4,108 bases of DNA from a virus (lineage: Duplodnaviria; Heunggongvirae; Uroviricota; Caudoviricetes). The DNA is taken from IMG/VR virus record IMGVR_UViG_2565956622_000012. One strand, 5' to 3'. The notes under the pieces are model-generated. The model was not told the DNA's origin. It worked only from the letters and a program-made list of their open reading frames with translations, and searched no databases. This document shows, piece by piece, positions 1-4,108 of the stretch. Position 1 is the stretch's first letter. Every line of letters begins with the position of its first letter. Position numbers and translations under genes: made by a program.

Positions 1-2
1 TA

Positions 3-137
3 TCACCACCGACTATTTGCAACAGTGCCATTAAAAAAATGTCGTCACGCGATTTTATTCAGTTGTGCGCTGTGGCTGTAAATTTTATGAGCGAGCCAGA
101 CTCTGGCGCGAAGAGCGTGCAGGAGACGGCAGCGTAA
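3..137 (+). CDS. Phage tail assembly chaperone gpE-like, C-terminal fragment (5' end lies outside the window); zero frame for the E/E' -1 frameshift
   Basis: Frame 3 is open from the window edge to TAA at 135-137 (…IKKMSSRDFIQLCAVAVNFMSEPDSGAKSVQETAA*). It sits immediately upstream of, and overlapping, the conserved E' frame, as expected for the P2 E/E' arrangement. Openness alone is weak evidence (45 codons); the call rests on synteny with E', T and U. Confidence 0.4.
   Translation, partial: SPPTICNSAIKKMSSRDFIQLCAVAVNFMSEPDSGAKSVQETAA
4..29. repeat. Left copy of a perfect 26-bp inverted repeat (caccaccgactatttgcaacagtgcc)
   Basis: Exact reverse complement of 4083-4108, with an imperfect extension of about 9 further bp inward. 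It lies in the E reading frame at the window edge. Confidence 0.95.
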
Positions 138-301
138 TCACCCTGGTGTGCTTTGAGCACATCGAAGATCTGGTGGCGGATATTGCCGCCATTTTCAACT
201 GGTCGCCCGCCGAAATCTTCATGATGACGCCCGGCGAAGTGGTTAGCTGGCGTGAGCGGGCGGCACTTCGCAGCGGGAATGCAGATAATGAAGACTCTTG
301 A
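65..301 (+). CDS. GpE-family phage tail protein (E' extension), probably expressed as an E+E' fusion by programmed -1 frameshift; frame 2 is open 35-301
   Basis: The frame-2 translation …FNWSPAEIFMMTPGEVVSWRERAALRSGNA… matches the conserved W-x-P-x-E…M…E…W…A…R-S-G pattern of the P2 GpE/E' family. It ends at TGA 299-301, overlapping the tape measure start, as in the P2 F-E-T-U-D operon. Frame 2 is closed upstream by TAA at 32-34, so entry is by frameshift from frame 3 or from an internal start (GTG 65). Confidence 0.65.
   Translation: MRCGCKFYERARLWREERAGDGSVITLVCFEHIEDLVADIAAIFNWSPAEIFMMTPGEVVSWRERAALRSGNADNEDS
80..86 (+). other. Candidate -1 programmed frameshift slippery heptamer A_AAT_TTT (X_XXY_YYZ in the E frame)
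   Basis: AAATTTT at 80-86 is phased so that codons AAT (81-83) and TTT (84-86) are in frame 3; a -1 slip enters frame 2, the conserved E' frame. An alternative slippery element is the A7 run at 33-39. Confidence 0.35.
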
Positions 302-3095
302 CATCCGGGTCGCTTTCAGCGCCGTTGACAGGCTGACCCGGCCTGCCGAAAACGCCCGCCGCCTGATGGGGCAGTTTGGTGACTCCATTCAGCGAACGCA
401 GGGGGCGATCAAAAATCTCGAGCGTCAGGCGCGTTCATTTGAGCGCGCCCGCGACGCTGTCAGTAAAGCGGATGCGGGTATCGTGAAAGCACGACGCCAG
501 CTTAACGCCCTTAATCAGTTACAACGCACGGGTACAGTGCTCAGCGAAAAACAACAAAAGCTGATGCAGCAGTTAAGCACCCGGCTTGAACGCCTGAATG
601 AATCGCGCACACGGGAAATTCAGAAAATGCGGGAGCTTGGCGGAGAACTGAAACGCCACGGCATTTCCCTGACAGGCAGCGATAACACCATCCAGCAGGC
701 CATCAGACGCACCGAACAATACAACAACCAGCTTGAACGCGAACGGCAGGCGCTTGCGCGTGTAACGCAGGCTCGTGAGCGGTATTCGCGCGCGCAGGAA
801 ACCGCGGGAAAACTGAAAACAGGTGGTGCGCTGGCAATTGGTGCGGCAGCGGCGGGCGGCTATGCTGCCGGGCGTTTTTTGCAGCCCGCGATCGGGTTCG
901 GCAAAGAGATGTCCCGCGTTCAGGCGCTGACGCGAATCGACAAAAACAGCCCGCAGTTTAAGGCGCTGCGTGAGCAGGCGTTAAAACTTGGCTCTGAAAC
1001 ACAGTTTACTGCGAGTGATGCCGCCAGTGGGCAGAGCTTTCTGGCAATGGCTGGTTTTACTCCGCAGGCCATTCAGGCCGCATTGCCCGGTGTTCTTAAT
1101 ATGGCGCTGGCAGGTGGCGTCGAACTCGGCGAGACGGCTGATATAGGCTCCAATATCCTCACACAGTTCAACCTGACAGCCGATCAAATGGACCGGGTTG
1201 GCGATACGCTGACAGCGGCATTCACCCGGACCAATACTGATTTACGCGCGCTGGGCGAAACCATGAAGTATACCGGTCCGGTTGCCGCAAAACTTGGTAT
1301 CAGTCTTGAAGAAGCGGCAGCCATGGCCGGGATGCTTGCCAATAATGGTCTTCGTGGAAGCGATGCTGGTACGGCCATGCGCGCAAGTCTGTCCCGCCTT
1401 GCATCACCGCCAAAAGCTGCGGCTGATGCGCTGAAAGAGCTGGGGGTGTCAGTTGCTGACGCCAGAGGCAAAATGCGCCCGATGGAGGATGTGCTGCTTG
1501 ATCTCTATAAGGCGACACAAAAATACGGACAGGTGGACCAGGTTTCCTTCTTCAAGGACATCGCCGGAGAAGAGGCGTTCGTTGGTTTGCAGACGCTTGT
1601 TGCGGCGGCTGGTTCAGGAGAGCTGCAAAAACTGACCAGAGAATTGCAGGGGGCAAGGGGAGAGGCCGATCGCGTTGCAAAAGTAATGGCCGATAATCTT
1701 GATGGGGACCTGAAAAATCTCGACAGCGCATGGGAAGGTCTTCGTATTCGCATCAGTGATCTGGTTGACGGTCCGCTGCGTTCTGTCACGCAGTGGCTCA
1801 CGCGGGTGCTTGAAAAAATCACCTCGCTGGCGCAGGCCCATCCGGTACTGACGCGCCAGCTACTGATAGCAGGCGGTGCGTTGCTGGCAATGACTGCAAC
1901 GGTTGGCTCGTTGTCGCTGGCTATTGGTGTGCTTGCTGGCCCGCTGGCAAAACTGCGTCTTGGCTTTTCCCTCCTGACCGGTTCAATGAATGCTGTCAGA
2001 CTCCTGCCAGCACTATGGGGAATGGTGACGGGTTCCGTTTCGTTACTGGGGGGCGCTATCGGGGCGTTGTTCAGTCCGGTCGGCCTTATCGTGGCTGCGC
2101 TTGCCGGAGCTGCCGTTCTCATCTGGAAATACTGGGATCCCATCAGGGCATTTTTTGCCGGGGTGTTCAGCGGGATTATGGAAAGGCTGACCCCGTTGCG
2201 CGAAACCTTTGAACGGTTTGGTCCTGTTTTTGACGCAATCGGGAGTGGGATCAGCCAGGTGTTTAACTGGTTTAAATCGCTGCTGTCTCCGATGGAGTCC
2301 AGCAAGGAAACTCTGGATAAATGTACCAGTGCTGGCGAGATATTCGGTAACGTTCTTGGCGGTGCGTTACAACTTGTTCTGACACCTGCAAAAATGTTGC
2401 TGGATACGCTGGCGTGGATACTTGAAAAGCTTGGTGTGCTTCCGGATGAAGCGGAAAGGGCGCGCAAGAAAATCGAAGACGCACAGCGTGCGGCCATTCT
2501 TCAGGACAAGGTTGCCTTGCTTCAGGGGGACCTGGCGAAAATCAATCCGCCGAAGCCTGTGGAAAATGGCAATGGCACCGGAGGTGATAACCCCAAAGAC
2601 AATAAACCGCTCACAGACAGCAATACCGGTACGCTGCGCAGACTCAGCAAAATTGCTGATAACACAGGTAAGCTGGTTGAGGAGACGAAAAAACGCATTG
2701 GCCCCGGCGATATTGTCTTTAAAAACCTGCCCCGAGCACTTGCTGTTCGTGGGGAGTGGCAGGAGCGGAAGATTGCGCAGGTCAGTAAGCCTGCCCCCGC
2801 AATTAATATCACACCCGTGGTCCCGGCTCCGCTGCCTCCGGCGCTGGTCCCTGTTGTTGCGGCCAGCTCCCGCCCGGTGGCGGAGGCTATACGATCTCCA
2901 GTGGCATCAGTTCCTGTAACTTCCCGTAACCGGGAGCCTGTTGCCTCCGGATTTGGTGGTGAAATTCATGTTCATCTGCATAACGTTGTTACGCAGAATC
3001 CCCGCGAACTGGCGAAACTGGTCGGTGAAATGGTCAGGGCAGAAATGGAACGGCGCGCCCGTGCCGGGCGTGGCAGTTTTTACGATAAAGATTGA
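288..3095 (+). CDS. Phage tail tape measure protein (P2 gpT-like)
   Basis: A 2.8-kb ORF ending at TGA 3093-3095. It has a charged coiled-coil-like N-terminal region, a conserved tape-measure core (…LTRIDKNSPQFKALREQALKLGSETQFTASDAASGQSFLAMAGFTP…GVELGETADIGSNILTQFNLTADQMDRVGDTLTAAFTRTNTDLRALGETMKYTGPVAAKLGISLEEAAAMAGMLANNGLRGSDAGTAMRASL…), a long central hydrophobic Gly/Ala/Leu-rich segment, and a Pro/Ala/Val-rich C-terminal linker. The start is ambiguous (GTG 252, ATG 279, ATG 288); ATG 288 has GGGA about 9 nt upstream and gives MKTLDIRVAFSAV…. Confidence 0.92.
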   Translation: MKTLDIRVAFSAVDRLTRPAENARRLMGQFGDSIQRTQGAIKNLERQARSFERARDAVSKADAGIVKARRQLNALNQLQRTGTVLSEKQQKLMQQLSTRLERLNESRTREIQKMRELGGELKRHGISLTGSDNTIQQAIRRTEQYNNQLERERQALARVTQARERYSRAQETAGKLKTGGALAIGAAAAGGYAAGRFLQPAIGFGKEMSRVQALTRIDKNSPQFKALREQALKLGSETQFTASDAASGQSFLAMAGFTPQAIQAALPGVLNMALAGGVELGETADIGSNILTQFNLTADQMDRVGDTLTAAFTRTNTDLRALGETMKYTGPVAAKLGISLEEAAAMAGMLANNGLRGSDAGTAMRASLSRLASPPKAAADALKELGVSVADARGKMRPMEDVLLDLYKATQKYGQVDQVSFFKDIAGEEAFVGLQTLVAAAGSGELQKLTRELQGARGEADRVAKVMADNLDGDLKNLDSAWEGLRIRISDLVDGPLRSVTQWLTRVLEKITSLAQAHPVLTRQLLIAGGALLAMTATVGSLSLAIGVLAGPLAKLRLGFSLLTGSMNAVRLLPALWGMVTGSVSLLGGAIGALFSPVGLIVAALAGAAVLIWKYWDPIRAFFAGVFSGIMERLTPLRETFERFGPVFDAIGSGISQVFNWFKSLLSPMESSKETLDKCTSAGEIFGNVLGGALQLVLTPAKMLLDTLAWILEKLGVLPDEAERARKKIEDAQRAAILQDKVALLQGDLAKINPPKPVENGNGTGGDNPKDNKPLTDSNTGTLRRLSKIADNTGKLVEETKKRIGPGDIVFKNLPRALAVRGEWQERKIAQVSKPAPAINITPVVPAPLPPALVPVVAASSRPVAEAIRSPVASVPVTSRNREPVASGFGGEIHVHLHNVVTQNPRELAKLVGEMVRAEMERRARAGRGSFYDKD

Positions 3096-3099
3096 GGAG
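3094..3099 (+). promoter_or_regulatory. Shine-Dalgarno (GAGGAG) for the gpU-like gene, overlapping the tape measure stop codon (translational coupling)
   Basis: GAGGAG at 3094-3099 lies 8 nt upstream of ATG 3108 and immediately after the T stop TGA 3093-3095. Confidence 0.6.
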
Positions 3100-3107
3100 T
3101 CATGGCC

Positions 3108-3596
3108 ATGATGATGATCTACGGCATGTTTGTTTTTGAGCTGCGCACGCTGCCGCATCAGCAGTTACAGCAAAACAAAAGCTGGCGGCATGTGAAAAAT
3201 GAACGCGTTAACCGTTCAGCAAGCTGGCAGTATATCGGTGCAGGTGATGATCGCATCGTTCTTTCTGGTGTGCTTTATCCTGAAATTACAGGTGGCGAAG
3301 TGTCGCTGTCGCTGCTGACCACGCAGGCGTATACAGGACGACCCTGGCCTTTGATTGATGGCGTCGGGCAGATTTACGGCATGTATGTCCTGACTGAAAC
3401 GAATACGACCCGCTCCGAGTTTGATCGCTACGGTAAGGCGAAAAAGATAGAATTTTCACTGACTCTTGAACGCTGTGATGAGGATTTGCGGGAGCGCCTG
3501 CAATCCTCATCGTTCAGTGATATGCTGTCCGGCTTCAAAGATAAGGTGACATCATCTCTTAACAGCGCGGCCAGTTCAGTTAAAGGGCTGTTCTGA
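3108..3596 (+). CDS. Phage tail protein gpU-like (P2 U family)
   Basis: ORF MMMIYGMFVFELRTLPHQQL…WRH…NERV…LSGVLYPEITGG…WPLIDGVGQIYGMYVLT…KKIEFSLTLERCDE… has the N-terminus and motif spacing I recall for P2 gpU-family proteins. It sits directly downstream of the tape measure gene and ends at TGA 3594-3596. An in-frame ATG at 3102 is too close to the SD; 3108 is preferred. Confidence 0.85.
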   Translation: MMMIYGMFVFELRTLPHQQLQQNKSWRHVKNERVNRSASWQYIGAGDDRIVLSGVLYPEITGGEVSLSLLTTQAYTGRPWPLIDGVGQIYGMYVLTETNTTRSEFDRYGKAKKIEFSLTLERCDEDLRERLQSSSFSDMLSGFKDKVTSSLNSAASSVKGLF

Positions 3597-3605
3597 TTTA
3601 ACACA

Positions 3606-3640
3606 AAAACCGCTAATGGTCAGATTAGCGGTTTTCATTT
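3606..3640 (+). terminator. Bidirectional rho-independent terminator shared by the convergent gpU-like gene and invertase remnant
   Basis: Perfect 12-bp inverted repeat aaaaccgctaat (3606-3617) / attagcggtttt (3624-3635) with a 6-nt loop ggtcag, followed by a T-run (ttttcatttt) on the + strand and preceded by an A-run (a T-run on the - strand). The invertase stop codon (TAA, complement of 3625-3627) lies inside the stem. Confidence 0.7.
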
Positions 3641-4082
3641 TCCTGAGTCTGCCCGGTTGTTTCTTCAGTCTGTATATCGCCTACAGGGTGATAACGATAA
3701 ATCGTCGATGTGCCAATGCCGTAAATTATTGCCAGTTGTTTTCTGTCGTGCCCGTTTTTGATTAGCCTTGCTATTTGCTCATGCTGTTCTTTTGTCAGCT
3801 TCGGTCGACGTCCGCCTGTGCGCCCCCTTGCGCGCGCTGCCGCCAGCCCGGCCAGTGTACGTTCAACAATTAATTCACGTTCCATTTCAGCCAGGGCACC
3901 CATCACGTGGAAGAAAAAACGCCCCATTGGAGAAGATGTGTCTATGCTGTCGGTCAGACTGCGAAAATTAATCCCTCGCTCCCGTAGTTCCCCGACGAGA
4001 GAAATCAGATGTTTCATGCTTCGCCCGAGGCGATCCAGTTTCCAGACAACCAGCGTGTCACCTTTTTGAAGGCGCTTTAAAG
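3625..4082 (-). pseudogene. DNA invertase (Hin/Gin/Pin/Cin-family serine recombinase), 5'-truncated remnant lacking the N-terminal catalytic serine region; C-terminal HTH retained
   Basis: The - strand translation …LKRLQKGDTLVVWKLDRLGRSMKHLISLVGELRERGINFRSLTDSIDTSSPMGRFFFHVMGALAEMERELIVERTLAGLAAARARGRTGGRRPKL…GHDRKQLAIIYGIGTSTIYRYHP… corresponds to roughly residues 45-190 of Gin/Hin-type invertases (by recollection). The first ~45 residues, including the catalytic Ser (GYxRVSTxxQ motif), are absent. In-frame sequence upstream of 4082 (…TTDYLQQCP) does not resemble the conserved …RPGLKRAL… region and is the inverted copy of window positions 4-29. The ORF track calls 3625-4095 using a TTG start. 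Confidence 0.8.
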
Positions 4083-4108
4083 GGCACTGTTGCAAATAGT
4101 CGGTGGTG
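4083..4108. repeat. Right copy of the perfect 26-bp inverted repeat (ggcactgttgcaaatagtcggtggtg)
   Basis: Exact reverse complement of 4-29. It begins precisely where invertase homology ends. Confidence 0.95.

Follow-up and report, generated by a model that had tools for sequence, protein, structure and literature searches.

The 26-bp sequences that close both ends of the 4,108-nt stretch of DNA analysed here (the window) are, almost certainly, the outer tips of an oppositely oriented pair of IS26 copies bounding a piece of prophage. The window is a whole draft contig that ended inside these repeats, and transposition in trans is its likely history. With IS26 identified most of the mystery is gone, and what is left is ordinary, known biology that is already well understood.

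IS26 termini at both ends of a draft contig

When the sequence was re-examined, the exact reverse complementarity of positions 4-29 and 4083-4108 reported in the earlier note was borne out. Each strand of the window has the 26-mer exactly once, and 200 dinucleotide-preserving shuffles of the window gave no match to it with up to 3 mismatches allowed; by chance, a 4.1-kb sequence would be expected to contain roughly 2e-9 exact inverted pairs of 26 nt. As had also been claimed, the repeat unit has no internal palindrome, the 26-mer read from the sequence not being self-complementary. An inverted-repeat search of the window returned arms of 33 nt at 4-36 and 4076-4108 with 94% complementarity. 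The left arm reaches position 1, with window 1-29 representing 29 nt of IS26, and the right arm is only 26 nt long because the sequence ends at that point. A weaker match of about 9 bp further inward had been reported as well. It amounts to 5 of 8 identities between the 8-bp flanks, ATTAAAAA and the reverse complement of CTTTAAAG, a level reached by chance in ~3% of random 8-mer pairs from the prophage and in ~8.5% if both are A+T-rich. The identities are there, but they are at chance level and lie outside the repeat, and the inward extension was rejected as a repeat feature (chance 0.03-0.085); the two 8-mers are two different IS26 target sequences.

For reference we used the annotated IS26 at 710-1529 in pC15-1a (L003), an 820-bp element with its transposase CDS at 762-1466. 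Window 1-29 is identical at 29/29 positions to pC15-1a 1501-1529, a segment 35 bp upstream of the annotated transposase start, and window 4083-4108 is identical to the IS26 left end at 26/26. The 14-bp terminal inverted repeat of IS26, GGCACTGTTGCAAA, lies at 16-29 (as its reverse complement) and at 4083-4096 and is found at both IS26 ends in pC15-1a; it is the 14-bp repeat described for the IS6 family (PMC7986276). The IS26 right end departs from this sequence after base 14, and the subterminal match is therefore specific to the left end. This end, the one with the transposase promoter, faces inward on opposite strands at both ends of the window. Positions 1-29 (minus strand) are the last 29 nt, the tnp26-proximal left end, of a copy whose remaining sequence, further to the left, has tnp26 reading outward from the window. 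Positions 4083-4108 (plus strand) are the first 26 nt of a second, opposite copy that continues to the right. IS26 is thus visible in the window only as 29 and 26 nt, with the bodies of the elements beyond the contig ends. Both breakpoints coincide exactly with the terminal base of IS26, as in real transposition. The earlier note had suggested, among other options, that the repeats were the inner edges of larger inverted arms, which is essentially correct: the arms are two 820-bp IS26 copies. The 26-mer adjoins annotated IS26 transposase genes in two other loci (L004 and L005), and at least 5,000 plasmids contain the IS26-end 30-mer, with at least 25,900 occurrences among them. The first reading had overlooked that a very common insertion sequence ends in this 26-mer.

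The window is the entire 4,108-bp scaffold KI531525.1 from the draft genome of Escherichia coli 907701 (GCA_000488395.1), so its two ends are those of a contig. Unable to extend through a multi-copy 820-bp element, the assembler broke off after 29 nt of IS26 at one end and 26 nt at the other, and the window appears bounded by a perfect inverted repeat because the whole contig ends within repeats. A literature search on strain 907701 found no paper. A 156-aa ORF with a TTG start had no match in the look-up, and its edge-truncated 160-aa form matched E. coli 907701.

The prophage interior and its junctions

The interior (30-4082; 4,053 bp) is 100% identical to and collinear with a serS-adjacent P2-like (P88/Xuanwuvirus-type) prophage of ST131-type E. 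coli, for which an intact copy (L002) supplied the coordinates. Its plus strand opens with the 3' remnant of a tail-assembly chaperone ('tail protein') gene at 30-137, the last 35 codons of a 124-aa product (native CDS L002 5734-6108). This is followed by the GpE-family (E') frame of the tail chaperone pair at 146-301 (annotated 'GpE family phage tail protein', L002 6117-6272; PF06528 on the called gene in L007), an intact 935-aa tail tape measure protein at 288-3095 (annotation; PF10145), present in exact form in 10,196 blocks of the protein collection, and an intact GpU-like tail protein at 3108-3596 (annotation; PF06995). A hairpin at 3606-3635 with a perfect 12-bp stem (arms 3606-3617 and 3624-3635, 100% complementary) lies between the converging gpU and invertase genes and is, from its sequence, probably terminator-like. 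On the minus strand, 3625-4082 holds the 3' remnant of a Gin/Hin-type serine invertase (native residues 49-199; PF00239 and PF02796), annotated as 'putative DNA-invertase, partial [Escherichia coli 907701]' (ESD19011.1). Compared with the native 199-aa protein, the window ORF has lost residues 1-48 and with them the region of the catalytic serine (..YVRVST..). One IS26 copy cuts the tail-chaperone gene at ATTAAAAA and the other cuts the invertase gene after codon 48 (48/49), inactivating the invertase. A large piece of the same prophage was also observed on the IncC plasmid pC-Ec2-KPC.

The 8-bp IS26 target ATTAAAAA at 30-37 is native prophage sequence (L002 6001-6008) and represents one copy of a target duplication; the second copy is on another 907701 contig, beyond the right end of the left IS26. 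This left outer junction was predicted first and then found: a hybrid ORF joining the chaperone N-terminus, ATTAAAAA and the IS26 right end (...DEVMIKK+ALLQS*) is exactly ESD25605.1, a protein of E. coli 907701 encoded on a 19,152-bp contig, which confirms the 8-bp duplication around the left IS26. The corresponding hybrid without a duplication was absent from the protein collection. Because the left outer flank is the native upstream part of the chaperone gene, with the duplication, the segment has stayed where it originally was. At the other end, the 8 bp abutting the right IS26, CTTTAAAG (4075-4082), is invertase-gene sequence that natively continues from ctttaaag into cgcgtttt, and it is presumably the target of the older insertion. 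Right outer junction hybrids (invertase N-terminus, CTTTAAAG and IS26 right end, at several contig-end lengths) were absent from the protein collection, as were longer IS26-invertase fusion forms. The right junction of the window was also found at the end of an independent Logan contig (L006, from SRR28811615) that reaches 27 nt into IS26. This assembly has the right IS26 junction only; on the left, the site is uninterrupted and collinearity extends to serS/rarA.

Exact searches of viral contigs gave no match to the left or right junction, and exact searches of genome representatives and metagenome contigs gave none to the left. A reconstructed IS26-interior-IS26 query found neither junction in 5,426 complete E. 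coli genomes or 72,556 plasmids, and thus no finished sequence among these has the full structure. Three apparently better matches (H76, H77 and H91) were rejected as other nearby IS26 copies joined by proximity. Assemblies reached through the tape measure protein and a 130-aa internal-start invertase ORF were mostly intact prophages, none with the window junctions; the 130-aa ORF retrieves mostly intact prophages because its internal ATG is frequently taken as the gene start. The two breakpoint positions of intact prophages carry neither 26-mer.

Origin of the inverted IS26 pair

The most likely history is a single intramolecular IS26 transposition in trans that copied the element and inverted the segment. 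The ancestor would already have carried IS26 in its invertase gene, as in the SRR28811615 assembly. Intramolecular replicative transposition of this copy in trans into ATTAAAAA, 4 kb away, would in a single step have produced a second, inverted IS26, duplicated the 8-bp target in inverted orientation and flipped the intervening segment. A precursor state with a single IS26 and an intact target exists in L006, and opposite IS26 pairs with inverted 8-bp repeats have been explained by one-step intramolecular events in trans that invert the intervening DNA (PMC4471558; PMC7986276). In this form the earlier suggestion that the repeats mark inversion breakpoints is plausible and now favoured, although the inversion itself is something we infer: the contig ends in identical repeats, and its graph is compatible both with a segment inverted relative to its flanks and with a plain second insertion bearing a direct target duplication.

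It is possible, if somewhat doubtful, that two independent IS26 insertions occurred without any inversion. The second IS26 would then have come from another replicon through a cointegrate and its RecA-dependent resolution and landed in opposite orientation by chance, leaving a direct duplication of ATTAAAAA and an interior in native orientation. The presence of ATTAAAAA both outside the left IS26 and at the interior end (30-37) is exactly the outcome of such a simple insertion, and independent IS26 hits on this prophage recur in other strains (L004, L005 and L011). However, two steps would be needed where one suffices, none of ~70 surveyed IS26 copies had direct flanking duplications while inverted pairs were ascribed to intramolecular events (PMC4471558), and the relative with only the right-hand IS26 has that copy oriented as the one-step route requires. 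We regard as very unlikely that an IS26-bounded composite transposon moved the prophage fragment elsewhere, for example to a plasmid. IS26 pairs are described as mobilising the DNA between them (PMC4894685), and the prophage piece on pC-Ec2-KPC would fit, yet the outer flank of the left IS26 is the native part of the same chaperone gene with its target duplication. Furthermore, IS26 pseudo-compound transposons and translocatable units need directly repeated copies (PMC7986276), whereas those of the window are inverted. An assembly or amplification chimera or foldback artefact, with junctions absent from the cell, was another option of the earlier note. It might be suspected of a short draft contig with the same sequence in opposite orientation at both ends and no finished genome carrying its junctions, but it found no support and is highly improbable: another sequencing run, put together with a different assembler, independently yielded the right junction, the partner of the left junction, with the expected 8-bp duplication, lies on another contig of the same assembly, and the breakpoints fall exactly at the terminal base of IS26.

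Sites of the hix/gix/cix type are 26 bp long, with two imperfectly symmetric 12-bp half-sites around a 2-bp core. The earlier note held that the window repeat is not such a crossover site, and this stood. The 26-bp inverted sites of the intact prophage, which we take to resemble gix, are at L002 10250-10275 and 12998-13023, and their pattern does not occur in the window, even with 3 mismatches allowed. An invertase fragment does abut one of the repeats, which could suggest crossover sites of that invertase or of a new site-specific recombinase, and a 4.1-kb programmed invertible element. The probability of this is negligible: the 26-mer is IS26 terminal sequence, the window invertase starts at residue 49 of 199 and is without its catalytic serine, and the genuine gix-like sites lie outside the window while intact prophages lack the 26-mers at these positions. 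Programmed inversion is thus already refuted by the identity of IS26, the truncated invertase and the location of the gix-like sites.

Returning to the IS26 pair, two further consequences can be entertained, though we consider them unlikely. The 4-kb segment between inverted 820-bp copies could flip in the population by RecA-dependent homologous recombination, or IS26 may repeatedly target this defective prophage and so seed the capture of plasmid DNA into the chromosome, as hinted by L011. Such flipping, if true, would mean that the prophage, having lost its own invertase switch to IS26, had by accident acquired an invertible segment bordered by the same IS. Three further IS26 events, each independent, were found in this prophage in other strains; taken with the window, they show that the region is commonly damaged by IS26.

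Relation to known systems

In the window IS26 disables the tail-chaperone gene and the tail-fibre invertase of a prophage, probably inverting 4 kb. This is one more case of IS26 remodelling the E. coli chromosome, and nothing new in kind. The shape of the contig is likewise standard behaviour. In repeat-induced breaks of short-read assemblies, a unique segment between multi-copy IS elements becomes its own contig with tens of nucleotides of repeat at each end, and inverted copies give contig ends that are reverse complements of each other; the window is no different. Where the two ends of a short contig form a perfect inverted repeat, caution is therefore due: inverted copies of a multi-copy IS on either side of a unique segment are expected to produce this, and a new recombination site should not be read into it.

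The intact prophage resembles the Gin/Hin/Cin/Pin tail-fibre switches of Mu, P1, e14 and P2-like prophages in having a 199-aa serine invertase and two inverted 26-bp sites, TTCTCGTAAACCGAGGTTTTAAATAA and a partner with 3 mismatches, ~2.7 kb apart around the tail-fibre C-terminus and assembly genes. The window differs from these switches in that its repeat is unrelated to the crossover sites, its invertase is truncated and the sites are absent from it. There is a likeness, too, to the clinical plasmids of He et al. 2015 (PMC4471558), which share the identical terminus (the 14-bp inverted repeat and the next 12-15 nt of the left end), the 8-bp duplication and opposite copies bracketing a segment. 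As in their pKpQIL-10 / pKpQIL-234 pair, there is a relative with one of the two copies and an intact target. Unlike in those resistance plasmids, the inversion is a probable one, in an assembly that stops in the repeats; the event in the window took place in the tail operon of a chromosomal prophage, and the bracketed segment carries no resistance gene.

Identity of the terminal inverted repeat

The perfect inverted repeat described in the earlier note was confirmed, with positions 4-29 and 4083-4108 of the window being exact reverse complements. There are exactly two copies of the 26-mer within the window, one per strand, and 200 dinucleotide-preserving shuffles gave no match with up to three mismatches permitted; the terminal repeat is therefore real and far exceeds chance. 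A repeat search extended the arms to 4-36 and 4076-4108 (94% match). The weaker inward match proposed earlier comes down to agreement at 5 of 8 positions when ATTAAAAA (30-37) is compared with CTTTAAAG (4075-4082) in reverse complement. Such agreement is reached by ~3% of random 8-mer pairs from the prophage, and by ~8.5% if both are A+T-rich, and we regard it as a chance resemblance of two A+T-rich insertion targets.

No fewer than 25,900 matches to the window's terminal 30-mer, spread over 5,000 plasmids or more and usually with several per plasmid, show that it belongs to a very abundant mobile element. In plasmid pC15-1a (L003), 35 bp separate it from the start of the gene downstream, annotated as "IS6-like element IS26 family transposase", and it forms part of an 820-bp element (L003 710-1529) bounded by 14-bp terminal inverted repeats, GGCACTGTTGCAAA. 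Window positions 1-29 are identical to the last 29 nt of this IS26, and the reverse complement of the element begins with the 26 nt of positions 4083-4108. In two E. coli chromosomes (L004, L005), too, the 26-mer stands beside genes annotated as IS26 transposases. Past base 14 the ends of IS26 diverge, and both window ends correspond to the left, transposase-proximal end on opposite strands. This indicates that two oppositely oriented IS26 copies flank the window, with their bodies outside it and tnp26 reading away on both sides.

Exact-protein look-up of the edge-truncated invertase ORF led to NCBI scaffold KI531525.1 (4,108 bp; assembly GCA_000488395.1), the exact reverse complement of the entire window. 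The fragment is ESD19011.1, "putative DNA-invertase, partial [Escherichia coli 907701]". The window is therefore a complete draft contig, of which 29 nt at one end and 26 nt at the other belong to a multi-copy repeat that the assembler could not cross. When a unique segment lies between inverted repeat copies, its contig ends are necessarily reverse complements.

Prophage content and the invertase crossover sites

Window positions 30-4082 are 100% identical to and collinear with a P2-like prophage that many E. coli chromosomes, those of O25:H4 strains among them, carry next to serS; the closest phages are Escherichia phage 500465-2, Xuanwuvirus P884B11, and P88. The segment holds the last 35 codons of a 124-aa tail-assembly chaperone gene, a GpE-family frame, a 935-aa tape measure, a GpU-like protein, and, on the minus strand, codons 49-199 of a 199-aa Gin/Hin-type serine invertase that lacks its N-terminal catalytic region. 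The intact prophage is unbroken across both breakpoints (gaagtgatg|attaaaaa and ctttaaag|cgcgtttt), and the 26-mer is absent from both positions there.

Between the converging gpU and invertase genes, a hairpin at 3606-3635 with a perfect 12-bp stem and 6-nt loop (AAAACCGCTAAT / ATTAGCGGTTTT) looks like a bidirectional intrinsic terminator. A candidate slippery site for the programmed -1 frameshift conserved in tail chaperones is the heptamer A_AAT_TTT at 80-86, which fits X XXY YYZ when read in the chaperone frame. It falls where the -1 GpE/E' frame, open from 65, overlaps the chaperone frame, which ends at 137; the overlap is 73 nt long. With the chaperone gene cut by IS26, the site is moot in E. 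coli 907701.

The earlier note's rejection of the 26-mer as a hix/gix-type site was borne out; the prophage has its own inverted pair of 26-bp gix-like sites elsewhere. In the intact chromosomal version (L002) one site, TTCTCGTAAACCGAGGTTTTAAATAA (10250-10275), lies 55 bp away from the start of the invertase gene; the other, inverted and with three mismatches, is at 12998-13023. This pair, ~2.7 kb apart and bracketing the tail-fibre C-terminus and assembly genes, represents the genuine crossover sites of the tail-fibre switch; neither site is present in the window. The arrangement of the tail-fibre segment differs among assemblies, according to their differing tail-fibre gene calls (L008, L009, L012, L015-L020).

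Junctions and origin of the two IS26 copies

The right junction recurs in a 13.5-kb contig (L006) from the independent Logan assembly of run SRR28811615, which breaks off 27 nt inside the IS26 terminus, the insertion point in the invertase gene being identical. Otherwise this contig is native prophage, identical over >10 kb, passing through the chaperone gene, intact here, and on to serS and rarA. For the left junction, given the usual 8-bp duplication, the neighbouring contig was predicted to encode the chaperone N-terminus followed by ATTAAAAA and the IS26 right end, yielding a 97-aa protein with the tail ...DEVMIKKALLQS-stop. A single 19,152-bp contig was found to encode exactly this protein (ESD25605.1 / WP_023142543.1, "phage tail protein E [Escherichia coli 907701]"). 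Both junctions are corroborated, and the assembly or amplification chimera suggested in the earlier note is thus very unlikely. The corresponding hybrid protein predicted beyond the right IS26 had no match in the protein collection. In the reconstructed sequence (4083-4108 and adjoining IS26), read outward from the left end of IS26, the invertase remnant shares its frame with an ATG within the element; the predicted 176-aa fusion, MGSCAAPSAKGDDKFITTDYLQQCP-LKRLQKGD..., had no exact counterpart in that collection.

IS26 moves by replicative transposition, and attack "in trans" on a target in the same molecule creates a second, inverted IS copy, inverts the DNA between the copies, and leaves the 8-bp target once per copy in inverted orientation (PMC4471558; PMC7986276). 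We lean towards such a one-step intramolecular inversion. The right-hand IS26 would have been present alone, with the chaperone target intact as in L006, and would then have transposed in trans into ATTAAAAA, a single step giving both the second copy and a flip of the intervening prophage segment. Consistent with this route are the inverted orientation of the copies, the presence of ATTAAAAA on the outer flank of the left copy as well as at one interior end, and the existence of a relative in which the right-hand copy stands alone, oriented as required and with the target intact. Separate insertion via a cointegrate and its resolution, which would leave a direct duplication and no inversion, predicts an identical set of contigs; we judge it possible, if somewhat improbable. 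Under either route, the segment could later flip by homologous recombination between the 820-bp inverted copies.

Other IS26 events in the same prophage

Independent IS26 events are also present in this serS-adjacent prophage in three further E. coli chromosomes (L004 9464-10283; L005 10236-11055; L011 13593-14168). In L004 and L005, IS26 in the tail-fibre region is joined to chromosomal ycaO or dmsA and the remaining prophage is deleted. The L011 copy, with an apparent 240-bp internal gap, lies in the same invertase gene 203 bp from the window's site and is followed by IncF-plasmid-type or pEK499-type genes (vapBC-like pairs, pEK499_p136), which suggests that plasmid DNA integrated into the chromosome through IS26. 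The 228-kb IncC blaKPC plasmid pC-Ec2-KPC (L001, NZ_MK439959.1 66837-78889) carries a long, 100% identical prophage stretch with hok, ogr, gpD, sheath, tube, tape measure, intact invertase, and tail-fibre genes, along with many IS26 matches (15 places with an IS26-containing query).

A search of 5,426 complete E. coli genomes and of the PLSDB plasmids recovered neither junction of the window, so this particular insertion pair is rare. It is not new in kind: all of its features are already known as textbook behaviour of IS26 and of short-read assembly.
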